DNA of 64,000 nucleotides from the NCBI GenBank assembly GCA_964016885.1, contig OZ024742.1:280860001-280924000 (forward strand). The letters are read 5' to 3'. Shown piece after piece: positions 2,392 to 49,810 of this stretch. The first letter of the stretch is position 1, and each line of letters opens with the position of its first letter. A program made the translations under genes and the position numbers. A model generated the notes under the pieces. It saw only the letters and a program-made list of their open reading frames with translations, did not search any database and had not been told where the DNA came from. The DNA comes from Eledone cirrhosa. Lineage: Eukaryota.

Positions 2392-2809
<418 letters not shown>

Positions 2810-2811
<2 letters not shown>

Positions 2812-3014
2812 ACGAGGAAATGTGGTGAGGAACCAGATGGACCATAACGCACCAAAGTACGCAATACTTAGGGTAGTAGAGTAGGTAATAGGAACGAATA
2901 GGACCCCGACGGCTGAGCTCAAGCCGTTTCGACGGCAAATTCTGGACTAAAATATTTTAGTCCAGAATTAGCCGTCGAAACGGCTTGAGCTCAGCCGTCG
3001 GGGTCCTACTCGTT

Positions 3015-3018
<4 letters not shown>
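2810..3018 (-). mobile_element. Fold-back mini-PLE end (family of the 9.5-13.5 kb element) in (TA)n
   Basis: Matches the reverse complement of ~13355-13495; inverted about ~2953; right arm ends GTTCCTA|TATA. Confidence 0.85.
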
Positions 3019-3064
<46 letters not shown>

Positions 3065-5415: not shown

Positions 5416-5616
5416 GGGAAAAGGGTCAGGATCCTTATGGCTGAGCTCCGGCCGTTTCGACAGCTAAATCCTACCTGTTCGGATCTAACTGTAGAAACGG
5501 CCGGAGCTCACCGTCGGGGTCCTGGCTCTTTTCTTATTACCCACTCTACTACCCTAAATATCGAGTACCCTGATACTTTATGGCCCACCTAGTTCCTTAC
5601 CACACTTTCTTTGTTA
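5416..5616 (+). mobile_element. Diverged fold-back mini-PLE end (sister subfamily)
   Basis: GAAACGGCCGGAGCTCACCGTCGGGGTCC and tail CCTTACCACACTTTCTTTGTTATATA, homologous to 13375-13495; inverted left arm. Confidence 0.75.
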
Positions 5617-5623
5617 TATATAT

Positions 5624-7314
<1,691 letters not shown>

Positions 7315-7434: not shown

Positions 7435-7516
<82 letters not shown>

Positions 7517-7518
<2 letters not shown>

Positions 7519-7689
7519 CGAAGGAAATGTGGTAAGGAAGCAGGTGGACCATAACGCACCAAAGTACTCAATACTTGAAGTAGTAGAGTGGGTAATAGGA
7601 ACCAGTAAGACCCCGACAGCTGAGCTCAAGCCGTTTCGACGGCTAGCCGTCGAAACGGCTTGAGCTCAGCTGTCGGGGTCTTACTGGTT

Positions 7690-7693
<4 letters not shown>
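7517..7693 (-). mobile_element. Fold-back mini-PLE end in (TA)n
   Basis: Perfect inversion GCCGTTTCGACGGCTAGCCGTCGAAACGGC; right arm ends GTTCCTA|TATA. Confidence 0.9.
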
Positions 7694-7727
<34 letters not shown>

Positions 7728-9393: not shown

Positions 9394-9462
<69 letters not shown>

Positions 9463-9472
9463 AACCAGTAAG

Positions 9473-9567
9473 ACCCCGACAGCTGAGCTCAAGCCGTTTC
9501 GACGGCTAATTATGGACTAAATGAAAATTTATCCTGGTATTTAAATAGCCGATCTTCTCAAGGGGGT
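9473..9567 (-). ncRNA. Same U3-A8 hammerhead in the inverted pLTR
   Basis: Reverse-complement copy of 13309-13402. Confidence 0.8.
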
Positions 9568-10503
9568 AATTCCATATATGGTCAAAGTGATTGTCAAAAA
9601 TCAGTAGTAATTCTGTGGTTGCAAATTAGTAGGGGAGATGGTGGCTAAACCAGCCAGTAGGAGAAAGAGGGGAGGGGGTGGAGTAGCCCCAATCAAGCGT
9701 TTGTAGTGCCAGCTACAGCTGGGCATGAGATCAAAGAAGATACAAGGGAGGGGGAAGGGGAGGAAGTCGGAACGGTAGGTAGAACAATGGGGGGTAGAAA
9801 TATATAGGAAAGAGAGTGAAGAAAAGCAAATAAGTGTAAAGAAAAACAAATGAGTGTAAAGAAAAAAGTAAAGTAAATTAAATTCTACGACCTAGGTCTC
9901 TAGCTATTGTTAGTCTGGAATAAATAAATAAATAAAGAAAGAAAGAAGTAAAGAAAGAAATAAAGAAATAACGAAATAAGTAAAAGAACTAGGTGGGACG
10001 GTATAGGCGAGGACCCTTTTAAGAGGTATAAGTACGTAAATGATACGGTGATGGGTCAACAAAAGGGGCCAAAATACTAAAGAGACTACCACGAAATAGA
10101 CAATAAAGGTTTCCATCCCGGGTACAATTCCAGCCACCACCCAGTGCAGCAAAGTGAACTAATACGAGATAATAATTCTGAGTCCCGAGAAAAATATATA
10201 CTAATGCTAACTCTAAAAGATCTAAAACAAGCTACATGAAAGTTCGTACGAAGTAAAGGTAGAATACGGAAGAATAAATTCAGAATCCACCCCGCCCAAA
10301 AGAAAAGCGAAGAAAGAAATACTGAAACGAAAAAATAAGGCATAAGTGCCACTAAGAAATATAGAGGGCACAGAGAATAGTGGGAGCGGTCGGAAAAAGG
10401 GGACAAGTATCCGGGGTCTAAACCAACTGCTATAAAGGGCGGAGTCCGCCAAATCTATCCTAGACTAGGGGAGGGGGTAGGGGTACTACCAGCTTCGGGG
10501 TAG

Positions 10504-12180
10504 AGGTACTCCAGCCTCGGGGTCGCCGACCGCACGGAACCTCTAGACCCACGGACACCATACTTCACACTGAAGGACCATAAATCCGATTTTGACCGTA
10601 AACCCTCTATCAGGCCTATTAACCCAACGAAGTCCGACATAGGGAGAATCAGCAAAAAAATCCTAGACCGCGTGATACCAAAAGTCAAGCAACACACCCG
10701 ACTTAGCCTATGGATCAACACCCAGGAAGTAATCTCCTGGTTCAGCAATATGGAGGATAAACGAGAAACTAAATTCATACAGTTCGACATAGAGAGCTAC
10801 TATGCTTCAATCACCTTACCGCTACTTACTGCCGCCTTGGACTTCGCCGAAACACTTGTGCCCATCACCGACCAGGAAAGAAAAATCATCCTCCACGCCA
10901 GGAAGACAGTCTTACTCTTTGACGACTCTAAATGGATAAAAAGAGCTCCCGACTCACCCTTCGACGTCAGCATGGGCGCCACGGATTCGGCGGAGGTCAC
11001 AGATCTTATAGGATTATTCCTAATAGCCAAACTCACTGATATGTTTCCTGCATTCGGTGGTGGATTGTACCTTGATGATGGGCTCCTTACCCTTAACGGG
11101 TACAACCCCAGTAGTACAGATCGGGTCCGGAAACAATTAATCAGATTCTTCCGCGACTGGGGATTTAAAATAACCATACAAACGTCCCTGACCAGAGTAA
11201 ACTTCCTGGACGTGACCCTCGACCTCGAAAACGACCTGTACTACCCATACAGGAAACCTAATGACAATCTGCACTACATCCACCGCAGATCAAACCATCC
11301 TAGGAACATCACAAACAACCTGGTCAAAAACATCTCCCTCCGCATATCCCGTTTGTCAGCTAATGAGCGGATATTCGATGAACATGCGCCTTATTACAAC
11401 CAGGCCCTCAAGCGGAGTGGTTTCCGGGAGGAAATATCCTACTGTCCAGCTCCCATTAGCGGAACCAGCAGGAGACACCGCTGCTCACGCAATGTAACAT
11501 GGTTCAATCCTCCCCACAACGCAGAGGTGACAACTCCCATCGGGAAACTATTCTTTAGGCTCATTGAAAAACACTTCCCATTACAACACCGCTACCACAA
11601 CATAATTAACAAAAATACCATCAAACTCTCTTACAGCACTACACCAAACTTCGCACAAAACATCGTCTCCTCTAACAACAAAAAACTCAACCCCGATGGC
11701 AGAAATAACCTAAATAGCAGTGGAGAACCGACCAGGAGGTGTAACTGCCCGGATAGATCTATCTGCCCACTCGACAATAGATGCAGAGACCGTAATGTGA
11801 TCTACCAGTGCAACGTGAGGACGGATACCTCCAACAAAGCCTATATAGGACTTACCGCATGTGACTTCAAGACCCGGCTATACCAACATAGACATACCTT
11901 CCGAAACCCGGCCCGGCGTCACGCCACTACACTCTCGGGCCACATATGGGACCTCAAGGACAACAACATCACCTATGATCTCACTTGGAGATTACTGTCC
12001 AGAGCCAATTCTGACACGGGAGGACGCCGTCCGTGCAATTTATGCTCGGAGGAAACTTTACAAATGCTGTTTTCGACGGACCAACTCCTAAACAAGAAAG
12101 ATGAACTGGTTACTGCATGTAAACATAGATTGCGTAGGACTTACCTCGCCCTCAAACCCCATAATGACCCGGGGGGGTAG
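10504..12180 (+). CDS. PLE reverse transcriptase + C-terminal GIY-YIG endonuclease (N-terminus truncated; probably Naiad-like clade)
   Basis: Stop-free from 10504. Motifs FTLKDHK, RPINP, FIQFDIESYY, SMGATDSAE, LYLDDGL, NFLDVTLDL, SNHP, WFNPP, CNC..CPL..RC, VIYQC..AYIGLT, CNLC..E. No native start codon; clade assignment from recalled motifs only. Confidence 0.92.
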   Translation, partial: RYSSLGVADRTEPLDPRTPYFTLKDHKSDFDRKPSIRPINPTKSDIGRISKKILDRVIPKVKQHTRLSLWINTQEVISWFSNMEDKRETKFIQFDIESYYASITLPLLTAALDFAETLVPITDQERKIILHARKTVLLFDDSKWIKRAPDSPFDVSMGATDSAEVTDLIGLFLIAKLTDMFPAFGGGLYLDDGLLTLNGYNPSSTDRVRKQLIRFFRDWGFKITIQTSLTRVNFLDVTLDLENDLYYPYRKPNDNLHYIHRRSNHPRNITNNLVKNISLRISRLSANERIFDEHAPYYNQALKRSGFREEISYCPAPISGTSRRHRCSRNVTWFNPPHNAEVTTPIGKLFFRLIEKHFPLQHRYHNIINKNTIKLSYSTTPNFAQNIVSSNNKKLNPDGRNNLNSSGEPTRRCNCPDRSICPLDNRCRDRNVIYQCNVRTDTSNKAYIGLTACDFKTRLYQHRHTFRNPARRHATTLSGHIWDLKDNNITYDLTWRLLSRANSDTGGRRPCNLCSEETLQMLFSTDQLLNKKDELVTACKHRLRRTYLALKPHNDPGG

Positions 12181-13308
12181 ACTAGGGCTATAACACCCCA
12201 CTTTCTGACTTTGCAATGGGTAATCCCTGCTTGCCAAGGGAGACGTAAGATCTTCTTTGTATTCTTTTATCGCTTCCTTTATTTCCTTCCTTCCCCCCTC
12301 TCTCCTTAGTCCTTCTACCCCAGCTCTTCTCCTTTGTCGACGTCTTTTCTCGCCCACCCGAGGCTGCCCTTTGGCCCCTTGTAGCCTTAGTACCCCTACC
12401 CCCTCCCCTAGTCTAGGATAGATTTGGCGGACTCCGCCCTTTATAGCAGTTGGTTTAGACCCCGGATACTTGTCCCCTTTTTCCGACCGCTCCCACTATT
12501 CTCTGTGCCCTCTATATTTCTTAGTGGCACTTATGCCTTATTTTTTCGTTTCAGTATTTCTTTCTTCGCTTTTCTTTTGGGCGGGGTGGATTCTGAATTT
12601 ATTCTTCCGTATTCTACCTTTACTTCGTACGAACTTTCATGTAGCTTGTTTTAGATCTTTTAGAGTTAGCATTAGTATATATTTTTCTCGGGACTCAGAA
12701 TTATTATCTCGTATTAGTTCACTTTGCTGCACTGGGTGGCGGCTGGAATTGTACCCGGGATGGAAACCTTTATTGTCTATTTCGTGGTAGTCTCTTTAGT
12801 ATTTTGGCCCCTTTTGTTGACCCATCACCGTATCATTTACGTACTTATACCTCTTAAAAGGGTCCTCGCCTATACCGTCCCACCTAGTTCTTTTACTTAT
12901 TTCGTTATTTCTTTATTTCTTTCTTTACTTCTTTCTTTCTTTATTTATTTATTTATTCCAGACTAACAATAGCTAGAGACCTAGGTCGTAGAATTTAATT
13001 TACTTTACTTTTTTCTTTACACTCATTTGTTTTTCTTTACACTTATTTGCTTTTCTTCACTCTCTTTCCTATATATTTCTACCCCCCATTGTTCTACCTA
13101 CCGTTCCGACTTCCTCCCCTTCCCCCTCCCTTGTATCTTCTTTGACCTCATGCCCAGCTGTAGCTGGCACTACAAACGCTTGATTGGGGCTACTCCACCC
13201 CCTCCCCTCTTTCTCCTACTGGCTGGTTTAGCCACCATCTCCCCTACTAATTTGCAACCACAGAATTACTACTGATTTTTGACAATCACTTTGACCATAT
13301 ATGGAATT

Positions 13309-13402
13309 ACCCCTTGAGAAGATCGGCTATTTAAATACCAGGATAAATTTTCATTTAGTCCATAATTAGCCGTCGAAACGGCTTGAGCTCAGCTGTCGGG
13401 GT
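13309..13402 (+). ncRNA. Type I hammerhead ribozyme, U3-A8 core variant
   Basis: ACCCC-UUGAGAA-GA(U)CGGCUA...UAGCCGUC-GAA-ACGGCU-UGAGCUC-AGCUGU-C^GGGGU; three stems formed; predicted cleavage after 13397. Confidence 0.8.
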
Positions 13403-13494
13403 CTTACTGGTTCCTATTATCCACTCTACTACCTCAAGTATTGAGTACTTTGGTGCGTTATGGTCCACCTGGTTCCTTACCACATTTCCTTAGT

Positions 13495-13554
<60 letters not shown>

Positions 13555-15880: not shown

Positions 15881-16418
15881 TTATTGTTGTTCTTTACCTT
15901 TTCGTCTAATTTTAAAAATATATCTGGGGAAAGTTTTAACATGTTTTCAGGCTAGACGCACCGTGGTCCGCAGAATAGAACAATTAAAGGTTAACTCAAA
16001 AGTTTAGTTCAACCACTGTAGAGTTCAACAATGATAAATACTACTATTACCAATACAAACCACGTAAAGACACAGAACAATTCAAAATTGATTTTCTACC
16101 ATTGTACATATCTGACAATGCACCGCCAATACCACCACTACAACAAAGAAAGAAAAAAAACAATAAATGCACTGAGTCGACTACTCCCATCACAACTACA
16201 ACAACAAAGCGTATTCATGATTATAATGTTATCAACATCATAAACAGCAGCAACGACAGTATCAACATTATGAACAACAACGACATCGCCGGAAGGGACG
16301 AATACAACAAGGAGGGGGTCCAAACAATACCATGTTTGCGCAATGAAAGAATTAATAATAGAATTAGATTTTGGAAAATGTAAACGATGAGAAAAATCTT
16401 TACCTATTTACTTTGATG

Positions 16419-16486
16419 TCCCGACTGAGTGTTTCGCTGAGTAACCAAAGATTTTGAACACTGAACAGCCTCAGCTCATCAGAGAA
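16419..16486 (-). ncRNA. Canonical type I hammerhead ribozyme
   Basis: UUCU-CUGAUGA-GCUGAG...CUCAGC-GAA-AC-acuca-GU-C^GGGA; all core residues present, 6-bp stem II. Confidence 0.85.
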
Positions 16487-16634
16487 CTTCTCAATCAGGA
16501 AGAATTCTTCCGAGTTATCCGCTACCAGCGATAATTTCGAATGCACGTATTATCACATGATTACCGGTCAACAGCAGTAGCTTGACAATGGTTAGTGACG
16601 GGGCTGCTAGAAAAACCAGTCTTATTTAGCCAAA

Positions 16635-16679
<45 letters not shown>

Positions 16680-16681
<2 letters not shown>

Positions 16682-16884
16682 CGAAGGAAATGTGGTAAGG
16701 AACCAGGTGGACCATAACGCACCAAAGTACTCAATACTTAGGGTAGTAGAGTGGATAATTGGAACGAGTAGGACCCCGACGGCTGGGCTCAAGCCGTTTC
16801 GACGGCTAATTCTGGCCTAAATTTAGTCCAGAATTAGCCGTCGAAACGGCTTGAGCTCAGCCGTCGGGGTCCTACTCGTTCCTA
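16680..16884 (-). mobile_element. Fold-back mini-PLE end in (TA)n
   Basis: Same family and architecture as 2810-3018. Confidence 0.9.
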
Positions 16885-16946
16885 TATATATATTTATTAA
16901 AAAAACAGATTCAAGTTTGGATTTTACTCTTCAAATTTATTATTAT

Positions 16947-22610: not shown

Positions 22611-22964
22611 CATATATATAAATATACGTGTTTTGCAACGGGTCACATTGTGGCTCAATGAAAATTTAATAAATTAAATAATCAGAGCTATATATCATAA
22701 AACATGTCTATAAAATCACAAGATAAAATATATACCATTTCCTCTCCCAATTAGCATAATTAACTCTATAAAAAATCGAATAGACAAGGCTATAAGAATG
22801 AGGCTTCTATGAAGAAATCTCCAACAAATAACCGAAACTAGCCCTTCGCGTCGGCCGCAACGGAATATTTATCGAATATTTCGACAGCGTAATCGCCCAG
22901 ATACAGTCAATTAAACAGAATTAGGTGTAAAATAAACTAGGAGAAAATAGAATACATTTAAATA

Positions 22965-23049
22965 CCTCTACCATGGTTTCGTCCGTATTTTGAGATTTCC
23001 AATAATTATGTAATAATTATGTCACTCGAGCACCGGATTCATCAGGAAG
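22965..23049 (-). ncRNA. Hammerhead copy 2; cleavage triplet GUA
   Basis: CUUC-CUGAUGA-aUCCG...CGGAc-GAA-ACCAUGGU-A^GAGG. Confidence 0.75.
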
Positions 23050-23279
23050 TTTGCTCTGATCTAGACACTAACATTTTCCAAAGTGATCGCGCCAAGAATT
23101 CATTCAAAATGGCTATGAATCGTGACGTAGTCGCGGTCAGGTTGGAAAGGGTGTGGTAGTTGCTTACGGCTGTTGGCTTTTTTGCTAGAAAGCACAGCAC
23201 GATACAGCCAAATTTGTATCTCAACCTAATGGGAGATTATTACATATAAAAGTTTACATATATATATACATATATATAT

Positions 23280-24048: not shown

Positions 24049-27000
24049 AGTTGGATTTATCTTGCTTTATGTTCATACGAGTTATCACCAAGTCACAACC
24101 AGTGACCTCAAGAGACAACAAGGTCCGCCATGTTCAAGAAGGAGCATACATACTCACACGTGAATCTTTAGTGTTTAGACTTGTGATGTACTTATATTGA
24201 CAGAATCTTCCTTAGTATATGGGCAGTTCCCATTAGTACTATCTTCTGTATTTCTCCTATACGCGGGTTTCCTGGGATTTGCGATAAGTAATCATTAGAC
24301 ACCTTAGGTATCATTCCAAGAGCGCCTACAACCACTGGTATTGTTTTAGTTCTCAATTTCCACATTTTTCCAATTTCTATCTCCAGGTCGTTATACTTGC
24401 TCAATTTTTCAAATGTTTTTATAGATACATTCTTGTCTATTGGAACAGACATATCAATTAGCAAGCATACCCTCTTTTTAAAGTCCTTCAATATTATATC
24501 AGGTCTATTTGCATCTATTTTTCGGTCTGTTTGGATGCTAAAGTTCCACAAGATTGAGATGTGATCTTTTTCAAGTATGGGTGGTGGTTGATGCTCCCAC
24601 CAATTCTTTTGATGGGGCAGGTCAAAATACTTACACATTATCCAATGTATGTATTGTGCAGCTCTGTCATGCCTGTTTAGGTCTTCGGTTGGAGCTATAG
24701 GACTGCACATTTAAATTATATGGTCAATGGTCTCTGGTTGTTTTTTACATACACGGCATAATGGGCTGCATCCATTTTTTATTATGTTGGCTTGGTAATT
24801 TTTTGTTGGCAGACACTGATCTTGTGCTGATATAATCAGTCATTCAGTCTCAGATTTCAGTCCAGAGGATGCCAACCTCTGATGGGTTAATGTTTTGTCA
24901 ACATCAGGATTGTTAGCTCGCTCTGGGTATTTTCCATACAGAGGCTTTTCTTGCCCTTTCTTAGCCAGTTTCTGTAGCAGTTCTTTCTTTGCAGTTACTT
25001 TTACCTGCTTTGCTTTTTCTGTGTTTTCCATTTCAGCAGTAAATGGGACTTCTGAAATGTGTAGTCCATTACTGTATCTTTGTGCATCTTTTGTAATGGA
25101 ATATGATCTTTTGGTGCTGTCGTGTTTCAAAACGAGTTTGATCATCCAATCATGTGATTCCCTTAGATATGTAGATAATCCAATTGTTGCAGTTTTCAAC
25201 GCAATGTCTAACTGGATTAACCCACGTCCTCCTTCTTTCCTAGAGAGATATATTCTATCTATATCTGCCTTAGGGTGATGCATTCTGTGCATGGTTAAGA
25301 ATTTTCGAATTTTTGTGTCGAGCCTAGAGATCTCTGTGCTTGACCAGTTGATGACATGACTGTAGGTTACTACTGGTATGGCAAGCGTGTTTATGGCATC
25401 GATCCTATTCCTTGCATTAAATTCCGTTCTTAAGATTGCTCTTACTCTGCGGTAACATTCCTTCCTTATCCTTTCCATCATTGTCGAGTGCTTGATTCCG
25501 TCTCCTTCACAAACACCTAGATATTTGTATGTTTTTTCGTGATCAAGTTCTCTTATCACGTTCCCCCGATCAAGATTAATGTCTGAACTCTTCAGCAGCT
25601 TTCCAAGTGTGAACGTTGCTTTGGCGCATTTATCTAGTCCAAACACCATTTTAATGTAATCACTGAACTGCACCACAGTGGATAATAACCCTTGCAATTG
25701 TTCATCATTTTTTGCAAATAGTTTCAGGTCATCCATGTAGAACAAGTGATTAATGGTTTTGTCATAGACTTTATATCCATGTTTTGTTTCATTGAGCATT
25801 TTACTTAATGGTATAAGTGCGATGCAGAATAAAAGCGGTGATAAAGAGTCACCCTGAAAAATTCCACAATTAATATTAACTTCTCCAGCTTCCAGTGATT
25901 TTGTTTCACTATTCAAAAGGAGTGTCGTTTTCCATGTCTTCATACTGAATGACAAAACCTCCTGACAACGGGGGATAATTTGAAAATCTCTAAACACTTT
26001 TCAATCCAACTGTGTGGCAAACTATCGAATGCTTTTTTATAATCTATCCAAGCAATCGATAGATTTTTGTGTCTATTATGACAATCTTCCAGTATCATTT
26101 TGTTAACCAAAAGCTGAACCTTACAGCCATATGAGCCTCGTTTACACCCTTTCTGCTCAAGGGGAAATAGGTCATTTGTTATCAGGTGGTCAAATGTGTA
26201 TTCAGTTAGGACTGATGTTAAAATTTTATACATTGTGGTCAAGCAAGTTATCGGTCTGTAATTTTTGGGATTATCATCCTTCGGAAGCAGGAATGTAATG
26301 CCGTTAACTAGCCATGATGGTATCTTTTCTGGCTCCTTAACTATTTCATTGTAAAGTTGGGCTAACAGCTCATGAGACTCTGTGAAGGCATTTATCCAAA
26401 AGTTTTGTATTTTGTCTTTTCCTGGGGATTTCCATTTGCTGGTTTTTCTTAGAGCCAAGCGCAACTGTTCAACTGTTATATTTTCCCATATTTGTTCCTC
26501 AAGGTGAGCTGTATCTTTCATTTGTCTGTCTATCCATGGGGCATGTATGTTATGAACTTTTCCTTCGGCCCAGATCTTTTCTCAGAATTATTGCACTTCC
26601 TCCTTGGGTGGTATTGATTTAGCAGTTATTGTTGACTTACCAATTTTTCTGTAGAAGTTTCTTTGGTTGTTTTTGAACATATTATTGTCCTTATAGAATC
26701 TAGATCGTTTTTCAAAGCGCCTTATACGAGTAGCTTTGGCCGACACTTTTTGCTTGATTATTTCTATCAGCATGTCTATGTCACTTGTTGATTTTATACT
26801 GTACTTTCTTTTCAATTTTCTAAGTTTAGTTTGTATAACATGTTCACCTACTTTATAGTTTGTTAATATTTCTATATCAGATCGGAGAAGGTTTATTTGG
26901 CGATTGATGTTCTCTTGCCAAGTAGATTTCTTGTGGGAATTCCTTTGTTTTTTCATCTTCAGTCCACATAAGTGAGTGGTGACTTTAGCCGGTGCATAAT

Positions 27001-29234: not shown

Positions 29235-32200
29235 TTCCTTGAATCTCAGTCATTGATGTTGGTTAACTGGAAAGTCCGTTGGAATGAATATCAAGCCACT
29301 ACCTGCAGCCTCAGATATTCAGGACGTATCGGAGGGTTCTTGCTGTTCCCAGCAAGCATGCCTTTTGAAGCGTTCCAAAAAGCGTGAAGGGACCGATTTT
29401 CTTTAACCATCCCTGGAAACTTTTGGAGATAGTCCCCAGTGCGCCTATGACAATCGGGATCACTTTGACTTCATGGCAGTTCCAAATCCTTTTCACCTCC
29501 CACTTTAGGTTCTGGTATCGGTTAATTTTCTCCCTCTCCTTCTCTTGCACACTCGTGTCGAAAGGGCAGGCCACATCCACAATCAGACACGATCTTTTTT
29601 CTTTGTCCACAACCACCAGGTCAGGTCTATTGTGTTCCAGTTTTTTGTCCGTCTGTATCCTAAAATCCCACAGCACATTCACCTGATTGTTCTCCATCAC
29701 CGCCTCTGGCCTATGCTCATACCATTTCTCAGAATGTGGTAAATTGTTTACTTTGCACAGGTGCCAGTGGATCACCCTGCCCATCACATCGTGTCTCCAG
29801 CCCTTATAGTGGATCTGGGCTAGGTGTTTACACTCGGACACAATGTGAGCCACAATCTCCTCTCTCTCTCCACAGATCCTGCACAGTGGGCTAGCCTCCT
29901 CCTTGTAAATATGGTGCTTCAACCACTTCGTTTTGAGGGCCTGCTCCTGCGCAGCCATTAGCATTCCTTCTGTAGCCTTTTTGAGGTCTCCTCTTCTACA
30001 CCAGTTACATGTCTGTGGATCTCTAAATTCAGTTTTCTCAAAGAAGGTACTACGAAGGGATTTTCCCTTAAGGCTGCTCTTCCTCCTTAATGTTATTTCC
30101 TCCTTGGACATCCCCTGGCCTACTGTCCCCTCCTTCAGTACAGTTCTGAGCATTGGCTCCTTACTATAGGTCACGTATTTGTATAGGTTGTTTTTCTCCA
30201 TCCGAACACAGTCCTCTATGCTGATAAGACCTCTTCCACCCTCAGATCTCCTTAGGTAGAATCTATCGACATCACTCCTCTTGTGGAACATGTAGATAGT
30301 CAATAGCTTCCTAGTCTTCCTATCCATTTCTTTTTGTTCAGCAACATTCCATCTCAGAATTCCCGCACTGTACCTAATAATAGACACAGCTCGGGAATTT
30401 ACTGCGCTTATGGCATTTCTGCTGTTCAGATGTGACATCAATACGCTCCTAACTCTCCGAATGTATTCAATTCTTAACAATTCCTTCATTTTTTTGTTCT
30501 TTATGCCATCAGCCTCCAGAACGCCCAAATACTTGTATCCTTCCTCAGAGTCAATTTCCTTTATCATCTCACCTGTTGATATCTGCATCCCGTTACTTCT
30601 GCTCAACGTACCCCTCCTCATCACAATGACTCCACATTTACTAATACCAAACTGCATACATATATCACTGCTGAAAATACGGACAGTGTCAACAAGCACA
30701 TCCAACTCCTTCTCACTTTTCCCGAAGAGTTTAAGATCGTCCATGAAGAGGAGGTGATTGATTGTAAGCTCTCCCTTTCCCAACTTGTATCCTGCTCTCA
30801 CTTTTCGCAGCATAATGGTCAAGGGCATCAGGGCAAGGACAAACAACAGAGGGGACAGGCTAACTCCCTGGAAGATACTTCTCTTGATCTTCACGCTTCC
30901 CAAGGATACTCCAGTTGATGTCAACTCTGTCTCCCAGGACCCCATACTCCTGCCCAGCAACTGTCTGATGTTATCTGCCACCCTGAAGATCTCCAGGCAT
31001 TTGGTGATCCAAGAATGAGGCACCATGTCAAATGCCTTTCTGAAGTCTATCCATCCCATGGCAAGATCAGTGTGTCTCCTCCTGCAATTCCCCATTACCA
31101 TCTTATCAATAAGTAACTGGTCCTTTGTACCACGTGACTTCTTTCGGCATCCTTTCTGTTCGTCCGGTAACAAGTTGTTTGTGTGGAGGTGATGGTAGAT
31201 TTCCTAAGATACAATGCTCGTCAACAGTTTCCACATTACGGACAGACATGTGATAGGTCTATAGTTGGTAACATCATTACCCTTCATTCGGTCTTTCATT
31301 ATCATAACTGTGGTACCTTTTGTCAACCACTCTGGCACCTCACTCGACACCAAGCAGTCATTGAACATGGCCGTCAGCTTCGGGTGGAGGGATGTTAAAT
31401 GTTTAATCCAATACCCCTGCACACCATCTGGGCCTGCTGATTTCCAGTTGGTTAGTTTTTTGGCCTGCCCCTTAAGAGTTTCAACTGTGATACTCAAATC
31501 AGTTTGTTGGTGTGCCTGCTCACCGAACTCCCTCTGCACTGTCTCAATCCACCCTGCCTGGACATTATGTCTAACATCCTGCTCCCATATTCCTCTCCAG
31601 AATGTTTTAGTTTGCTCCGCCCCAGGGATCAAGTCGTTGCTTCTTTCTTTCCCCTCAAGCTGTCCAAACAGCATCTTCTGGTTGTTGTCGAACATGCGGT
31701 TCTGTTTATACTGACTGACTCTGTTCTCGTATCGCCTGATTTTTGCACTCTTTGCTACAATGCGTTGCTTCAGTTCCTCTATGATAATATTTAGCTTTTT
31801 CCTCCTAGTTTTGTACTTTATTTCCAGTCTATTTTTAGTGCCTATGTTTTTTAGTGTCCCATTCAGTAGTGACTCAAGCTTTCCTATGTCATTTCTCATT
31901 TCCCCGATTTGACCACTCAGTCGTTTCTTCCACCACGGCTCTGTTCTTTCTTGTCTATTGTTTCCTCTCGCTTTTATACCAAGTAGTTTCCTCACCGTAT
32001 TTGCTGTTGCTTTGAGGATATTGTTGCACTGGTGAAGGCTCCTCGCCTCAAGGTATGGGATGACTTTGTTTACCTTAGCTGTTGTTACTTTTAACTTTTT
32101 CCTGTCTACAAATCTTAGGTTCATAGGTCTCCCACTATCATTGTTCAATTCATCTACCACTAAATTTAGGATGTCAACCGAATCTTGTCCTAGCCCGTCA

Positions 32201-33763
32201 GCATTTATCTCCTCAGTGGCCGTATCTCTGTTCCAGGTATTATTTATCTCAGTATTCAGATCATTGTCTGCTTCGGGTGGTTCCTCCGTTCTCAGGACCT
32301 CTTCACCTTCATTTCCTACTGGCTCGCTTGTCTGGCATACTACACCCGCCATCTCCAAGCCATTCTCTCTGCTCAGTTCCTCCAGTTCCAGCTCGCTTAT
32401 CCACCCATTAGTTCTTATTACCCGAGCCTGCCCGGCCAATTTTTGTTCATCTAATTTAAATAGACCAATCTCGTTCCAGATGTTATGCATCCGTCTCCTG
32501 TAGCCCCTCTCCTTGGGGTTACTTTTCAGGTAACATTGCATAACAGTTCTATTCAATTCTTTCGTCCAGTTGGTTCTGGCCCCTTTCCTTCTTCTTCTTC
32601 CTCCAACATCAGCAGTATTTGGTTGACAGTCAGGTTCCTGCTGCTGAGCCAGGGGGCACCTGTTGGGTGAGAGTCTGTCACATGACGTTCTATTCTCCAT
32701 TTCACCGTTATTCGAACTGTTTATGTTCGATATTTAAACACTCTTATCGAGGATTGGCGAATGTATGGTTACATAGCCATCTGTGGATTCGCCGTTCCAC
32801 TTGGCCCTTGTGTGGCATTATCACCACGCTATATACGAACACACATAAACAAACAAACACACAGGCAGAAAGGGCCCCAAAAATGAATAAGCATAAGTTT
32901 CATTGTAATGTAGTGTTCGAATGTCTGACTTAGTTTTTGTTTTTTTAGTTTTAGTTTTTCCCCCCTCTTCTCTGTCCGTCCACCTGCTTCTCTCTTCATT
33001 CTTATTTTCTTTACGTTTTTTGTTTTTTTTGTTTTTGTTTTTCTCTGTTTGTTTTTCTCGTTTGTTGATGTTGTTGCTGTGCTGCTTTGGTTTTGTTGTT
33101 TGTTTTTTCTTTTTTCTTTTGAGTCTATCTATATATTTTGATGCCTTCCTCTTTTTTAGTAGTAGGAATTCTATAATGTGGTGGCAGCAGCCATCTAAGT
33201 GAGGTGGGTAACTGGCGGCGGTAGCGATACTGAGACAGTGGTGGTGGGGATGTCGATACCGAGGCAGTGGTGGTCAGTGAAGGAGTGAAGAGTGGTGGCG
33301 GCGGTGATGGGATAGTGGTGGTAATGATGGCAGTAGTGAGCGGTGGTGGTGAAATTGCCGTTATCTGGCTGTTGTGTTTAGTGTACACAGGTGATGAGGT
33401 GGGTGGTGTATCTAGTTTCTGGTGTTGGTGAGTTTGGCTGTTTTATATAGTGTATCTAGTTTCTGGTGTTGGTGAGTTTGGCTGTTCTATATAGTGTAGA
33501 CAGAGGAGAGGGGGGGGGGGTTATTCTTCCATTTATAGCCATTTTCTTTTTTGGATATACAGTGTACAATACAAAGTTGAATATTTGAATATTTGAGCCT
33601 TATAACAATATATTTTGGGTCCGAATTTTTTGGGGCTCAAGCCGGGTGCTTTACGTAGCATTTGTACTAAGAGTTGTTATTTCACAAATGATTTAAATAT
33701 GTTAAAAATTCAAAACTTACGGGAGCGATTTCATGACCTCCGCCACCTCGTGCGTCCTCTTCC
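29235..33763 (-). mobile_element. Full-length R4/Dong-type retrotransposon, family A copy 1
   Basis: ~1-kb 5' UTR, single ORF, short 3' UTR, TAA repeats at both ends. Confidence 0.93.
29311..32700 (-). pseudogene. RT-REL polyprotein (~1130 aa) with one premature stop at 31204-31206
   Basis: [48 protein letters not shown] (CCHC), [23 protein letters not shown]; the codon is GAG in copy 2 and TAG here. Confidence 0.92.
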
Positions 33764-34464: not shown

Positions 34465-37400
34465 TCAGATATTCAGGACGTATCGGAGGGTTCTTGCCGT
34501 TCCAAGCAAGCATGCCTTTTGAAGCGTTCCAAAAAGCGTGAAGGGGCCGATGTTCTTTAACCATCCCTGGAAACCTTTGGAGATAGTCCCCAGTGCGCCT
34601 ATGACAATCGGGATCACTTTGACTTCATGGCAGTTCCAAATCCTTTTCACCTCCCACTTTAGGTCCTGGTATCGGTTAATTTTCTCCCTCTCCTTCTCTT
34701 GCACTCTCGTGTCGAATGGGCAGGCCACATCCACAATCAGGCACGATCTTTTTTCTTTGTCCACAACCACCAGGTCAGGTCTATTGTGTTCCAGTTTTTT
34801 GTCCGTCTGTATCCTAAAATCCCACAGCACCTTCACCTGACTGTTCTCCATCACCGCCTCTGGCCTATGCTCATACCATTTCTCAGAATGTGGTAGATTG
34901 TTTACTTTGCACAGGTGCCAGTGGATCACCCTGCCCATCACATCGTGTCTCCAGCCCTTATAGTGGGTCTGGGCTAGGTGTTTACACTCGGACACAATGT
35001 GAGCCACAGTCTCCTCTCTCTCTCCACAGATCCTGCACAGTGGGCTAGCCTCCTCCTTGTAGATATGGTGCTTCAACCACTTCGTTTTGAGGGCCTGCTC
35101 CTGCGCAGCCATTAGCATTCCTTCTGTAGCCTTTTTGAGGTCTCCTCTTCTCAACCAGTTCCATGTCTGTGGATCTCTAAATTCAGTTTTCTCAAAGAAG
35201 GTACTATGAAGGGATTTTCCCTTAAGGCTGCTCTTCCTCCTTGATGTTATTTCCTCCTTGGATATCCCCTGGCCTACTGTCCCCTCCTTCAGTACAGCTC
35301 TGAGCATTGGCTCCTTACTATAGGTCACGTATTTGTATAGGTTGTTTTTCTCCATCTGAACACAGTCCTCTATGCTGATAAGACCTCTTCCACCCTCAGA
35401 TCTCCTTAGGTAGAGTCTATCGACATCACTCCTCTTGTGGAACATGTTGTAGATAGTCAATAGCTTCCTAGTCTTCCTATCCATTTCTTTTTGTTCAGCA
35501 ACATTCCATCTCAGAATTCCCGCACTGTACCTAATAATAGACACAGCTCGGGAATTTACTGCGCTTATGGCATTTCTGCTGTTCAGATGTGACTTCAATA
35601 CGCTCCTTACTCTCCGAATGTATTCAGTTCTTAACAATTCCTTCATTTTTTGGTTCTTTATGCCGTCAGCCTCCAGAACGCCCAAATACTTGTATCCTTC
35701 CTCAGAGTCAATTTCCTTTATCATCTCACCTGTTGGTATCTGGATCCCGTTACTTCTGCTCAACCTACCCTCCTCATCACAATGACTCCACATTTACCAA
35801 TACCAAACTGCATACATATATCACTGCTGAAAATACGGACAGTGTCAACAAGCACATCCAACTCCTTCTCACTTTTCCCGAAGAGCTTAAGATCGTCCAT
35901 GAAGAGGAGGTGATTGATGGTAAGCTCTCCCCTTCCCAACTTGTATCCTGCTCTCACTTTACGCAGCATAATGGTCAAGGGCATCAGGGCAAGGACAAAC
36001 AACAGAGGGGACAGGCTATCTCCCTGGAAGATACCTCTCTTGATCTTCACGCTTCCCAAGGATACTCCAGTTGATGTCAACTCTGTCTCCCAGGACCCCA
36101 TACTCCTGCCCAGCAACTGTCTGATGTTATCTGCCACCCTGAAGATCTCCAGGCTTTTGGTGATCCAGGAATGAGGCACCATGTCAAATGCCTTTCTGTA
36201 GTCTATCCATCCCATGGCAAGATCAGTGTGTCTCCTCCTGCAATTCCCCATTACCATCTTATCAATAAGCAACTGGTCCTTTGTACCACGTGACTTCTTT
36301 CGGCATCCTTTCTGTTCGTCCGGCAACAAGTTGTTTGTGTGGAGGTGATGGTAGATTTCCTCAGACACAATGCTCGTCAACAGTTTCCACATTACGGGCA
36401 GACATGTGATAGGTCTATAGTTGGTAACATCATTACCCTTGATTCGGTCTTTCATTATCAGAACTGTGGTACCTTTTGTCAACCACTCTGGCACCTCACC
36501 CGACACCAAGCAGTCATTGAACATGGCCGTCAGCTTCGGGTGGAGGGATGTTAAATGTTTAATCCAATACCCCTGCACACCATCTGGGCCTGGTGATTTC
36601 CAGTTGGTTAGTTTTTTGGCTTGCCCCTTAAGAGTTTCAACTGTGATACTCAAATCAGTCTGTTGCTGTGCCTGCTCACCGATCTCCCTCTGTACTGTCT
36701 CAATCCACCCTGCCTGGGCATTGTGTCTAACATCCTGCTCCCATATTCCTCTCCAGAATGTTTTAGCTTGTTCCGCCCCAGGGATCAAGTCGTTGCCTCT
36801 TTCTTTCCCCTCAAGCTGTCCAAACAGCATCTTCTGGTTGTTGTCGAACATGCGGTTCTGTTTATACTGACTGACTCTGTTCTCGTATCGCCTGATTTTG
36901 GCACTCTTTGCTACAATGCGTTGCTTCAATTCCTCTATGATAATATTTAGCTTTTTACTCCTAGTTTTGTATTTTATTTCCAGTCTATTTTTAGTGCCTA
37001 TGTTTTTTAGTGTCCCATTCAGTAGTGACTCAAGCTTTCCTATGTCATTTCTCATTTCCTCGATTTGCCCACTCAGTCGCTTCTTCCACCACGGCTCTGC
37101 TCTTTCTTGTCTGTTGTTTCCTCTCGCTTTTATACCAAGTAGTTTCCTCACCGTATTTGCTGTTGCTTTGAGGATATTGTTGCACTGGTGAAGACTCCTC
37201 GCCTCAAGGTATGGGATGACTTTGTTTACCTTAGCTGTTGTTTCTTTTAACTTTTTCCTGTCTACAAATCTTAGGTTCATAGGTCTCCCACTATCATTGT
37301 TCAACTCATCTACCACTAAATTTAGGATGTCAACCGAATCTTGTCCTAGCCCGTCAGCATTCATCTCCTCAGTGGCCGTATCTCTGTTCCAGGTATTATT

Positions 37401-37856
37401 TATCTCAGTATTCAGATCATTGTCTGCTTCGGGTGGTTCCTCCGTTCTCAGGACCTCCTCACCTTCATTTCCCGCCGGCTCGCTTGTCTGGCATACTACA
37501 CCCGCCATCTCCAAGCCATTCTCTCTGCTCAGTTCCTCCAGTTCCAGCTCGCTTATCCACCCATTAGTTCTTATTACCCGAGCCTGCCCGGCCAATTTTT
37601 GTTCATCTAATTTAAATAAACCAATCTCGTTCCAGATGTTATGCATCCGTCTCCTGTAGCCCCTCTCCTTGGGGTTACTTTTCAGGTAGCATTGCATAAC
37701 AGTTCTATTCAATTCTTTCGTCCAGTTGGTTCTGGCCCCTTTCCTTCTTCTTCTTCCTCCAACATCAGCAGTATTTGGTTGACAGTCAGGCTCCTGCTGC
37801 TGAGCCAGGGGGCACCTGTTGGGTGAGAGTCTGTCACATGACGTTCTAGTCTCCAT
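34465..37856 (-). pseudogene. RT-REL polyprotein with a single frameshift near 35770
   Basis: ORFs 35760-37856 and 34465-35793 overlap; 1-nt loss relative to copy 1 (AACGTACCCCTCC vs AACCTACCCTCC). Confidence 0.92.
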
Positions 37857-38415
37857 TTCACCGTTATTCGAACTGTTTATGTTCGATATTTAAACACTCT
37901 TATCGAGGATTGGCGAATGTATGTTTACATAGCCATCTGTGGATCCGCCATCCCACTTGGCCCTTGTGTGGCATTATCACCACGCTGTATACGGACACAC
38001 ATAAACAAACAAACACACGGGCAGAAAGGGCCCCAAAAATGAATAAGCATAAGTTTCATTGTAATGTAGTATTCGAATGTCTGACTTAGTTTTTGTTTTT
38101 TAAGTTTTACTTTTTCCCCCCTCTTCTCTGTCCGTCCGCCTGCTTCTCTCTTCATTCTTATTTTCTTTACGTTTTGGGGGTGTCTTTTTTTGTTTTTGTT
38201 TTTCTCGTTTTTTGCTGTTGTTGCTGTGCTGCTTTTGTTGTTTGTTTTTTCTTTTTTCTTTTGAGTCTATCTATATATTTTGATGCCTTCCTCTTTGTTA
38301 GTAGTAGGAATTCTATAATGTGGAAGTGGCAGCCAGCAGAGACTGGCGGCGTTGGTGATACTGAGACAGTGGTGGTGGTGATGTCGATACCGAGGCAGTG
38401 GTGGCGGTGATGCGA

Positions 38416-43382: not shown

Positions 43383-46300
43383 ATGGCTGTACTCAGAATA
43401 GGAAGTATAAATGCACGTGGCCTGGGGTCATCTTGGAAGCAGGGTCACCTGCTCAATGACCTCAGGTCACTAAACATAGATGTGGTGGCCATCAGTGAAA
43501 CCAGAATCTCCGAGGCACGGGACTTCGCACCGATCTTCGGTGGCTACGATGTATACGCATCTCCCAGCTGTCCAGGATCGGGGGGAGGGGTTGCCGTCCT
43601 TTTTCGGAGAGGCTTGGATCTCGCGATACGGGCCATCTTCCTGGACCCAGAAGGTAAGTCGGTGGTGCTGGACGTGACCGGCAGCGGGGGCAGGACGGCC
43701 AGATTTCTTCAGACGTCTAGAGACCTTTCTTGGAACGTTCCGCTCTTTAGTGTTATTAGGCGACTGGAACGGTATCTTGGATGCACGCTGGGATCGTGTG
43801 GGGCTAGTGAATAGGGGAGGAGGATGCAAGAGCCTCATCAACCTGCTCAGACGTTTTGAACTGTCTGACAGGTATCGACTGGATCACCCGAATGTGCCAA
43901 TGTGGACATGGACAAACCTCATCGGGTCATCCAGATGGTATCTAGATAGGGTATTCTGTAGGGAACTAGATAAGGCTAGTATAAGTTGTCCACAATTTAA
44001 AATAGTCGACTACACAGACCACAAATTTGTGATCTGTGAGATCGACATAGACAGACTTCATAGACAAGGGCCTTGTTACTGGAAGCTGAACGCGTCTTTC
44101 CCAGCGCGCAAGGCCTACAGAGACAGGATTAGCGTATTAGTTAAGCGGGATTTGACGGGAGCGGTCATTAACAACAGGTGGTGTTTCGCCCTGAAAAGGG
44201 CAATTAAAGTACAGTCGATTAGGTTTAGCAAAGGAGTAGTGATAGAGGAAAATAGAGTAGAGGGAGAGCTAGTCAGACAGCTAGAAGAGGCGTTTAGGAC
44301 AGGCATCGCAGCCGACGTGCTTGCGGCGAGATTGGCACTCAACCAATTCTTCAACGCAAAACACGAAGTCTGCGTTGTCAGAGCTAGAGCGCGTGCTCTG
44401 AAACACGAGGGGACAAAAGCCGTCCAATGGGCCCGGGTGGCAGAGGCGCGACGTGGCAATAAAGCCACAATTCGGTCTTTGTCTGACCAAAACGGGTGCG
44501 TGATGCTCGAACCCGAGCGGATGTGTGAAGCTTTTCAGCAGCACTTTGCTGAACTGTTCGGGAGCGGCGGCGGCCCGGATCGGGACATGGACTTCAGTGC
44601 ATACCTCGTCGGACTGCCTCGGCTCTCGACGACCGCAGCACAGTGTTGCGAAAAGCCAATAACAGCCGGTGAAATACGGGAAGCGATGGCTAACTGCACA
44701 AGAGGTAAATCGCCAGGTTTAGATGGTCTGCCCTACGAGCTTTATGCATTTATGCCAGACTTGTTCGGTGACCTATTGGCAGACGTCTACTGCAACTGGC
44801 AGCAGAACGAGAGCATTCCCAGTTTTGTGAGCCGGGGAGCAGTGGCGCTGCTGAGAAAAGACCCGAACAAGGGGGATGTTATTGATAATTTCAGGCCCAC
44901 AACTCTGCTAAACGCAGAGTTCAAGATTTTGGCCAAGGTGATAGCAACGTGGTTGGCACTTGTCGTCAAGGGTCTGGTGGGAGAGGCGCAGACATGCGCC
45001 ATCCCGGACAGATCCATACACGACAACCTCCACCTCATGCGATACATCATAGAGAGGGTGGTTAAGGAACCTGGCAAGGGTGGGGCCCTGATCAACTTGG
45101 ATCAATCCAAAGCATTCGATAGGGTCGACCATCGGTACCTGGCGGTGGTCCTCGAGACAGCTGGATTTGGGACCGTTTTCAGGCGTTGGATCGGAGCAAT
45201 GTACAGCGACATCTGGTCAGTTGTGAGGGTGAACGGTCACCTGTTGCAGCCGTTCAGCATCATGCGCTCAGTCCGCCAGGGTTGTCCCCTCTCGTCCCTC
45301 TTGTACGTATTGGCTCTCGAGCTGTTACTGCACAAACTGGGGGCGATGAGGGGCGTCCCACGCGAACTAGGATGCGGGAAATCCGAGTCGGCTTACGCTG
45401 ACGACGTCACCGTGGTGGTGTCGAGCAGCAGACACGTCCAGATGCTCGGCACCGCTCTCAAAGAATACGAACCGATGACAGGAGAAAAGATAAACCAGGA
45501 AAAGTCGGTGGGCTTGCAGCTAGGCACATGAAGAGGCAAGTCCATGCCGTCCGACAGTGTCGTGGGGCGTTGGACGGACGGACCGGTTAAATTGCTCGGG
45601 GTCTGGTTCGGACCGGACCTCCAGATGGAGAAAAACTGGAACGAGGTGACGAGCAGGGTGGCCTCCCTCACCCAGAAATGGGCTGAGAGGAAGCTGTCCC
45701 TGAAAGGCCGGGCGGAAGTGGCGAATGCGTACATCGCATCCGTCATCTGCTACCGCCTCACCGTCGTCTCTTGCTACAGCCCAACTCTCCCCAAACTGGT
45801 GCGCCTCCTCTTCCGCTTTTTGTGGAAGGGACGCGCTCCCATGGTCAGACGATCCATCTGCTGTCAACACTCGTTGCGTGGAGGACAGGGCATGCCATGG
45901 CTGATGATGCGCAAACATGCGCTGAGGCTGCGACATCTCTGGTGCTTCCTTGATGGTGAACGGGTGTGGTCGCCGTTCGCCAGGCACATTTTCCCACAGC
46001 TCGTCTCCTTGACGGAGCTGCAGTCCTGGGTCAGAAAAAGACCGAGGGATAGCGCTTGGAAACTGGAATGTCTCCAGGCGCTCACTGCCCTCTCCCAGTT
46101 GGGCAGCAGTATCGGTGGAACATCCACCTCGACGTTCTATAGAGGACTAGTGGAGGGGAAGAGCGACGACGTTCTCGGAGAGATCCTGGGCGTCGAAGAA
46201 GATCAGCTGCTTGCTCTCTTCCGGAGAACTTTCAGCATGGGGCCTATGGATAACTTCCAAAAATCCCTGACCTGGCAGTGCTACCGGGGAGCGCTGCCGG

Positions 46301-49325: not shown

Positions 49326-49361
<36 letters not shown>

Positions 49362-49363
<2 letters not shown>

Positions 49364-49510
49364 CGGAAGAAATGTGGTAAGGAACCAGGTGGACCATAAC
49401 GCACCAAAGTACTCAATACTTAGGGTAGTAGAGTGGGTAATAGGAACGAGTTGGACCCCAGAATTAGCCGTTGAAACGGTTTGAGCTCAGCCGTCGGGGT
49501 CCAACTTGTT

Positions 49511-49585
<75 letters not shown>

Positions 49586-49745
49586 CGAAGGAAATGTGGT
49601 AAGGAACCAGGTGGACCATAACGCACCAAAGTACTCAATACTTACGGTAGTAGAGTGGGTAATAGGAACAAGTAAGACCCCGACGGCTGAGCTCAAGCCG
49701 TTTCGACGGCTAATTCCGGACTTAGCCGTCGGGGTCTTACTTGTT

Positions 49746-49749
<4 letters not shown>
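49362..49749 (-). mobile_element. Two adjacent fold-back mini-PLE ends (49362-49514 and 49584-49749)
   Basis: Same family as 2810, 7517 and 16680; both end GTTCCTA|TATA. Confidence 0.88.

Positions 49750-49810
<61 letters not shown>

Follow-up and report, generated by a model that had tools for sequence, protein, structure and literature searches.

A hammerhead motif with a likely internal start site in a Hydra-clade Penelope-like element of Eledone cirrhosa, and insertion junctions that may record its cleavage

A type I hammerhead motif in a Penelope-like element (PLE) of Eledone cirrhosa may leave a record of its own activity in the junctions of the element's insertions. We analysed the motif in a 64,000-nt stretch of contig OZ024742.1 (assembly GCA_964016885.1, positions 280,860,001 to 280,924,000, forward strand), called the window below and numbered from its first letter (Table 1), together with copies of the element across the 3.0-Gb genome. 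Most sampled insertions end inside loop II, where a capped Pol II start at about A13357 is very probable, and a rare class ends at the predicted scissile bond; judged from sequence, the hammerhead at 13309-13402 probably cleaves in vivo. That a minority of transcripts self-cut after C13397 while most begin at the capped start in loop II is, on the junction evidence, an evenly balanced proposition. Were it true, palindromic PLE insertions would show whether the RNA template began at a capped start or at a ribozyme cut, in a form readable in any assembled genome, and the junctions would amount to a fossil assay of in vivo activity, in elements for which in vivo cleavage is rarely evidenced. What is new is the long loop II, likely with a start site inside it, the drifting 3-8 pair and the junctions that plausibly record in vivo cleavage; the U3-A8 core alone would be ordinary.

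Table 1 Features of the hammerhead motif and its host element in the window
Feature	Position	Strand	Basis or remark
Type I hammerhead motif, 3′ pseudo-LTR of Hydra-clade PLE	13309..13402	+	Sequence, minimum-energy fold, descriptor scan, stem II covariation
Core 5′ strand, U3 U4 G5 A6 G7 A8 A9 (UUGAGAA)	13314..13320	+	Sequence
Stem I, ACCCC/GGGGU	13309-13313/13398-13402	+	Sequence
Stem II, then CGGCUA/UAGCCG	G13321-C13374, A13322-U13373, bulged U13323	+	Sequence
GAAA	13375-13378	+	Sequence
Stem III, ACGGCU/AGCUGU	13378-13383/13391-13396	+	Sequence
GAGCUC within loop III (UGAGCUC)	13385-13390	+	Sequence
Extended palindrome UGAGCUCA across loop III	13384..13391	+	GAGCUC kept while flanks change
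GUC triplet	13395-13397	+	Sequence
Predicted scissile bond C17/G1.1	13397..13398	+	Also end point of both arms in rare insertion class
Alternative hairpin AGCCGU-CGAA-ACGGCU	13368..13383	+	Fold prediction, ~0.09 in full motif
Conserved TTTAGT in loop II; likely capped start A13357	13354..13359	+	5/5 subfamily majorities, modal 5′ end, junction inserts
Inverted copy of 12388-13417	9458..10488	−	99.7% identical
Second complete hammerhead, in inverted copy	about 9473-9567	−	One additional C in stem I
5′-truncated RT-GIY-YIG ORF	10509..12180	+	Hydra motifs CxCX5C, CxxC, CxH
Long 3′ UTR	12181..13308	+	Strongly divergent among subfamilies
3′ segment with two inferred reverse-transcription start points	13403..13497	+	Tail logic from the available text of PMC11167929
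Short inverted insertion	49338..49515	.	Tail-bearing arm from 13398 equivalent (2-nt overlap); other arm from 13360 equivalent

The layout of the motif was confirmed as type I, with three helices around the core and the opening at stem I, and its unconstrained minimum-energy fold is a three-way junction with the core unpaired. Folded in a 131-nt context, the full hammerhead makes up about 0.57 of the ensemble, with pair probabilities of 0.73-0.98 for stems I, II and III; the 6-bp stem III has monomer pair probabilities of 0.74-0.89, and loop II is 37 nt long. Measured against shuffled sequences, the stability of the fold is not exceptional (z = −1.24). The window copy has U4, G5, A6, A9, G12, A13 and A14, the pairs A15.1-U16.1 and G10.1-C11.1 and a NUH triplet, and these positions are invariant in the majority sequences of five subfamilies, the 5′ half being partly imposed by the search pattern. 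The stems, core, GUC and GAGCUC described in a first-pass annotation of this DNA were all found where it had placed them, and its description of a young PLE with a type I hammerhead is borne out. It had also expected standard searches to miss the motif, and Rfam indeed returned no hammerhead match at the gathering threshold across the 64-kb window, the sole match being unrelated (E = 4.8). A hammerhead descriptor scan of the window gave four candidates. Two are the motif at 13309 and its inverted counterpart at 9561; the other two are canonical motifs unrelated to them.

The insertion that bears the motif spans 9458-13497 between (TA)n tracts and consists, in order, of the inverted copy of 12388-13417, the truncated ORF, a 1.1-kb 3′ UTR, the hammerhead and an 80-nt tail. 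Its ORF has lost its 5′ end and reads YLDD where intact copies have YRDD. The full element encodes a 719-aa ORF with the motifs RLRWR, SDKT, CNCPDRSIC, VIY..YIG, CNLC and CKH, and is, as assigned by motifs, a Hydra-clade PLE: it has a single ORF with RT followed by a C-terminal GIY-YIG, RWK-like and DKT motifs, a CxCX5C linker, CxxC and CxH (motif definition from the available text of PMC8557442), and inserts into (TA)n with a tail and an inverted arm. Visible similarity to Hydra-1_Obim was judged by eye against partial text of the published sequence; Pfam matched no family to the element ORF, and a protein search found 1,856 relatives among 8,000 candidates scored. Two traits typical of the clade are lacking, since the core is not CUGANGA and the unit, measured from a natural five-unit tandem with a spacing of 3,542-3,543 nt, exceeds the general size of <3 kb. 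Reverse transcription would start at 13417, where the inverted arm ends, and at ~13497, where the tail ends, with (TA)n after each. Genome-wide, a 22-nt tail motif has 37,228 exact matches, and we counted ~6,700 core-bearing copies, the flank-only core pattern giving 6,721 matches versus 107 for its control.

The main 5′ ends of these insertions lie in loop II. We scored 100 tail-bearing copies, those listed first for contig C1: 64 of them stop at 13353-13372, with a mode at 13357 (13 copies), 3 stop at 13395-13400 and 9 extend past 13300; of the inverted arms, 56 of 66 scorable ones end in the same 13353-13372 interval. All five subfamily majorities agree on TTTAGT, although loop II has otherwise diverged, and TTAGTC/TCAGTC in loop II is what we take to be an initiator-like sequence. 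Both arms extend to A13357 in 502 insertions of subfamilies C and E. Inspected by eye, the first 50 of these contain single inserts that are C/G in 23 cases versus A/T in 2, and an untemplated C stands at the cDNA end in 29; because the natural C13356 variant occurs in 2 of 44 copies of C and E, a templated origin of the extra C is unlikely. Reverse transcriptases can add an extra C opposite a cap. Since a review (PMC5888575) says no more, in the text available, than that MMLV enzymes favour untemplated C, the cap argument rests on the contrast with the 13398 site, where single inserts show the opposite preference (A/T 13 vs C/G 3, p = 3e-6). Modal copies include the AG and share no upstream sequence, and on these grounds we dropped the idea that the main stop marks an acceptor for splicing or trans-splicing. 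As to expression, runs X1 and X4 behaved as DNA contigs would and were set aside as evidence. All junction tallies, here and below, are hand counts of the first listed matches.

At the predicted scissile bond, a pattern with A replacing C17 gave 68 matches versus 30 for a control C six bases downstream, and the arm-A-arm arrangement lies exactly at G13398 in 10 of 30 loci versus 1 of 30 at the control position, this one being a perfect fold-back. Both-arm junctions within 13387-13402 number 600. We classified the first 50 by eye: 19 end at 13398-13400 (16 with untemplated letters, 3 without), 23 are fold-backs through stem III palindromes, 3 are ambiguous and 5 are of other kinds, and no single position besides the scissile site shows untemplated both-arm ends. 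Subfamily A has 122 junctions of the 13398 type per 7,543 tails; the first 50 comprise 21 with no insert, which could be CG microhomology joins, 13 with a single A/T, 9 with longer untemplated inserts, 3 with a single C/G and 4 that are read-through or ambiguous. The class, which we call cleavage fossils, makes up 0.4-1.6% of copies, and the sample of 100 copies shows no excess of it, with 3 of the 24 breaks between 13373 and 13411 (p = 1.0). Both-arm ends at 13398 are likely to be run-off from uncapped, ribozyme-cut RNA, pausing being the main rival. Judging from literature listings, we found no report of PLE insertion ends at a hammerhead cleavage site.

The rate of cleavage fossils differs among subfamilies: 122/7,543 in A (U-A), 46/8,204 in B (mostly C.A) and 20/5,133 in C (mostly U-A). 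The comparison of A with B (p ~1e-10) had suggested that the rate follows the 3-8 pair, a reading that then failed on a tail-SNP test and on subfamily C. The youngest U3-A8 group has the top rate, and yet the rate does not track the pair; B compared with C gives p = 0.2. A prediction set beforehand, that the cleavage junctions of B derive from its U3-A8 minority, also failed: of 32 cleavage-type B loci, 4 lacked the tail, and 22 of the 28 scored carry the C3.A8-linked tail letter, a link that itself rests on 3 U3-A8 and about 11 C3.A8 copies. The CC share was 6/28 in these tails versus 0/13 in the background of 13 copies (p = 0.15). This leaves two readings: in vivo cutting persists in mismatched cores, or the signal is in part not due to cleavage.

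The motif is not a product of chance. Copies were sorted into five subfamilies, labelled A-E in this analysis. Upstream of the motif, the 3′ UTR of B is about 65-80% identical to that of A and those of C, D and E are unalignable; the motif region is 70-94% alike between subfamilies where BLAST aligned it, 19 of 28 D copies giving a partial alignment or none. Across the subfamily majorities, the variable columns number 18 of 23 in the 5′ portion of loop II and 6 of 8 in the bulge of stem I; none varies in stem I (0/10), GAGCUC (0/6) or the 3′ half of the core (0/7), and the contrast between the invariant 3′-half core (7/7) and loop II plus the stem I bulge (24/31 variable) gives p = 3e-4. GAGCUC, the loop III palindrome singled out at first pass, is thus identical in 5/5 majorities. 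Because earlier patterns had fixed letters of the 5′ core, we rechecked that core with the flank-only pattern: 92 of the first 100 matches, out of 6,721, read YTGANRAG (counted by eye), and U4, G5, A6, A9 and G10.1 were each retained in at least 96 of the first 100 flank-anchored matches, with position 7 free.

Across 40 chosen copies, 90.3% of the cells of the consensus structure are paired, a figure that describes related sequences and is not a probability. Stem II has double-sided changes at three pairs (G-C to A-U in 11 of 40 rows) and stems I and III have none, counts that reflect few events because the 40 copies are related. The outermost stem III pair is broken in subfamilies C, D and E. 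The AGCCGU/AGCUGU variation noticed in stem III at first pass does occur, with T48/C47 in the main cluster; only one side changes, at a CpG, and this is not compensation. Examination of a candidate pairing across copies established no tertiary contact between loops I and II, and a pseudoknot of loop II with stem I (CCAG with CUGG) was rejected, CCAG being kept while its partner varies without covariation. We also rejected alternative core registers on the downstream GA, because that A varies (A/C/U) whereas A9 and G10.1 are constant. A perfect palindrome, CCATATATGG, lies at 13295-13304 just upstream of stem I. Four of five subfamily majorities keep it and C has one change, in contrast to the divergent UTR farther upstream. 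In subfamily D, the oldest (e.g. L314:1479-1611), stem II has been rebuilt as CAGCUAGAU/AUCUAGCUG and the loop II hairpin differs, yet TTAGT stays unpaired in its usual position.

The window copy and its subfamily have a Watson-Crick 3-8 pair (U-A), and for this young subfamily the proposed consensus of UUGAGAA with an ACCCC/GGGGU stem was upheld: its pattern gave 2,255 matches, with U3-A8 in 99 of the first 100. In the wider family the pair is absent from 1,780 C3.A8 copies. Position 3 is U or C, position 7 is free and position 8 is mostly A; by eye, the first 100 flank-only matches are U-A in 69 cases, C.A in 27, U.G in 3, G.A in 1 and C-G in none, and G8 occurs in 93 copies genome-wide, 17 of them C3-G8. 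The C3.A8 copies are a young group (22 copies, mean pairwise distance 0.048). The compensatory reading of U3-A8 proposed at first pass therefore fails as a strict rule: in the family the 3-8 pair is not strictly compensatory, and U3-A8 is one tolerated state of position 3-8, not a fixed requirement.

A tree of 25 ORF ends, which is independent of the motif and from which surplus A copies were dropped, forms a ladder of D, E (U.G), C (U-A), C3-bearing branches and then A (U-A), with starred support at the trunk nodes toward A, the window subfamily. Grouping all C3 rows was rejected and two position-3 changes are enough, the group having been named after the tree was seen. Since the C3 lineages lie on the trunk, the U3-A8 of the window was probably regained from a C3.A8 master. 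An ancestral C3-G8 was also considered and could not be established: the most divergent subfamily, D, is U-A in 92 of 100 copies, and its C-G copies are nested tips. In 12 representatives, one having a broken pair, the fraction predicted to fold actively was 0.48-0.55 in subfamily A; U-A copies of other subfamilies gave 0.10-0.36, and C.A copies 0.004-0.028. A single scaffold in this family thus offers the catalytic 3-8 pair in four natural states, U-A, C.A, U.G and C-G. As judged from literature listings, no report of C3.A8 lineages was found, a prior variant being possible in Lunse et al. or in supplements.

Long copies bear on the form of the template. Only 10 of 76 first-arrival copies read through the start site past 13345. 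A total of 301 copies continue beyond the tail into the 5′ UTR; among 30 examined, 18 continue at least 397 nt toward the ORF, and of these 16 reach the start zone, where all but one (15) read through; with a tandem collapsed the count is 12 of 13 loci. This read-through in long copies (12/13) argues for continuous templates, circular or tandem, and, set against 10/76, disfavours a retrovirus-like strand transfer at every pass.

Our working model joins these observations as follows. Pol II would start at ~A13357, so that of the ribozyme just the 3′ half would be present at the 5′ end of the RNA. With priming at (TA)n on each of the two strands, from points ~60 and ~140 nt downstream, reverse transcriptase would run off at the capped end and give the dominant short inverted insertions, and the complete ribozyme at the downstream repeat could cleave as a monomer. 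In what is the weakest step, the downstream ribozyme might also swap strands with the capped 5′ half via the GAGCUC palindrome and cut there, which would yield unit-length RNA with matching ends, ligatable to a circle that would serve as template for long and tandem copies. When natural fragments (a capped 5′ end and a cleaved downstream ribozyme) are folded together, the strand-swapped hammerhead is the unconstrained two-strand minimum (−50.5 vs −32.1 kcal/mol for separate strands). In the predicted fold the strands are joined via GAGCUC and the hairpin at 13368-13383 frees the substrate strand, so that the half-site at the capped 5′ end should be open to cutting by the downstream ribozyme. 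The loop dimerisation proposed at first pass thus survives as a predicted fold and is optional, because the monomer folds alone as its minimum-energy structure. We put forward the swap-and-circle route tentatively, the balance being somewhat against it, and a promoter role for GAGCTC is an alternative, since it lies at +29 to +34 relative to A13357, presumably the position where downstream promoter elements sit. Taken as one chain, with a promoter inside the hammerhead, a palindrome swap that removes the cap and leads to a circle, junctions that record both ends and C3.A8 cores that still cut, the model is possible and, as a whole, doubtful.

A leaner account would have the ribozyme cleave only in cis as a monomer, with GAGCTC acting as a DNA promoter element and long copies coming from tandem read-through transcripts, without circles. 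The monomer is the minimum-energy fold, about 0.57 of it fully formed, and tandem arrays do exist, both the five units spaced 3,542-3,543 nt and others; moreover, Penelope of D. virilis has an internal promoter with a downstream element, as described in the available text of PMC2377424. However, GAGCTC mismatches the RGACGTGY element given in that text, 12 of 13 long-copy loci pass the start site while long tandem arrays are apparently a minority among the matches listed, and the swapped fold is strongly favoured in silico, so that we consider purely cis cleavage rather unlikely.

That the motif no longer cleaves meaningfully, being kept as a structure, promoter or protein platform while the 13398 stops are RT pauses at the three-way junction or after the G-run, seems to us improbable. 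It would fit the C3.A8 lineages, which expanded to 1,780 core-bearing copies, sit on the trunk of the ORF tree and still show stops at 13398, as well as the read-through of the 13398 site by at least about 85% of copies and the finding, in the available text of PMC11167929, that Poseidon hammerhead mutants were not blocked for insertion in vitro. Yet a pause before stem III should stop at C13397, templated single C/G letters occur in 3 of 50 junctions, and 22 of 50 A junctions have untemplated letters after G13398; the retention of U4, G5, A6, A9 and G10.1, each in at least 96 of 100 matches listed, around a free position 7 likewise speaks against a dead structure. At the other extreme stands a fully active family with a compensatory U3-A8 pair and an obligatory loop III dimer. 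For it one may cite U-A as the majority state (69 of 100 matches listed), regained in the youngest subfamily, the top cleavage-fossil rate of that subfamily and the conserved GAGCUC palindrome; but C.A (27 of 100 matches listed) and U.G lineages transposed, the 5-6-bp stem III folds as a monomer, and subfamily C is mostly U-A yet has a low cleavage-fossil rate, which leaves this strict form very improbable indeed.

Several of the components of our working model have precedents, which we compare here on the basis of the excerpts available of each cited paper. The U3-A8 core and the palindromic loop III in PLEs are already published. Natural U3-A8 cores were first reported by Perreault et al. 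2011 (PMC3088659), who state that earlier work found the U3-A8 covariation active in vitro; the available portion of that paper makes no mention of expanded C3.A8-mismatch or U3.G8-wobble lineages such as those of the Eledone family. Cervera and De la Pena 2014 (PMC4209133) described U3-A8 hammerheads in Schistosoma Cercyon PLEs, with about 1,300 matches to a new descriptor, the standard one missing the Cercyon motifs; they also described a palindromic loop III, action as a dimer and weak activity in vitro. Because both papers report U3-A8 cores, the headline of the first-pass annotation is real and not new. Cercyon shares with the Eledone motif the U3-A8 core in a terminal repeat, the type I layout, the palindromic loop III and the dimer idea (PMC4209133). 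By contrast, the Cercyon motifs are minimal, without a stable stem III, whereas the Eledone motif has a stem III of 5-6 bp, a 37-nt loop II with a likely start and no extra base from A9 to G10.1; with a stem III that is neither absent nor very short and no extra base after A9, the motif at 13309-13402 falls outside the min-HHR class.

Hydra PLEs of Craig et al. 2021 (PMC8557442) are alike in their sense-strand type I hammerhead near the 3′ end, their (TA)n targets, their tail and inverted arm and their clade motifs; in the excerpts available, they are generally <3 kb, versus 3.54 kb for the Eledone unit, and all 26 Hydra rows of File S2 have CUGANGA, a loop II of 3-10 nt and a stem III of 3-4 bp. 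In Anolis Poseidon (PAc) the hammerhead is protein-assisted, and elements with a mutated hammerhead remained able to insert in vitro (Frangieh et al. 2024, PMC11167929, as excerpted). PAc resembles the Eledone element in having two internal RT start points downstream of the hammerhead that define the tail, in the extension of both target strands and in templates that are mostly uncleaved (PMC11167929). It differs in its C3-G8 core, unlike the U3-A8 of the Eledone motif, and in that the available text of PMC11167929 reports no RNA ends at the cleavage site, where the Eledone genomic junctions cluster. Eledone tandem units carry an intact RT-EN ORF, which sets them apart from non-LTR retrozymes. 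Short tandem arrays at G000:C2:356030082-356031006 and L267/L268, with spacings of 299 and 257 nt, contain the tail/5′ UTR junction; the L267/L268 unit begins in the region of the start site, extends as far as the start of the ORF and lacks the 5′ core, and the arrays are retrozyme-like in layout.

The window holds further elements of the same and other families. Six short inverted insertions of the PLE family lie in (TA)n, at 2787-3019, 5440-5624, 7493-7694, 16656-16885, 49338-49515 and 49560-49750, and contain only the 3′ half of the hammerhead. A canonical CUGAUGA type I hammerhead candidate at ~22962-23052 (−) has a long loop II and a short stem III (ACCAUGGU) and is unrelated in sequence to the PLE hammerhead family of 13309-13402; a second canonical CUGAUGA candidate, at ~16416-16489 (−), has a GUC site and a long stem II. 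Other non-LTR retroelement ORFs, with RVT_1 matches in a domain scan of the window ORFs that left out 34465-35793, are found at 24840-26000, 29311-32733, 34465-37889 (−) and 43678-45531 (+), and several of them share 300-nt blocks that are 89-98% identical.
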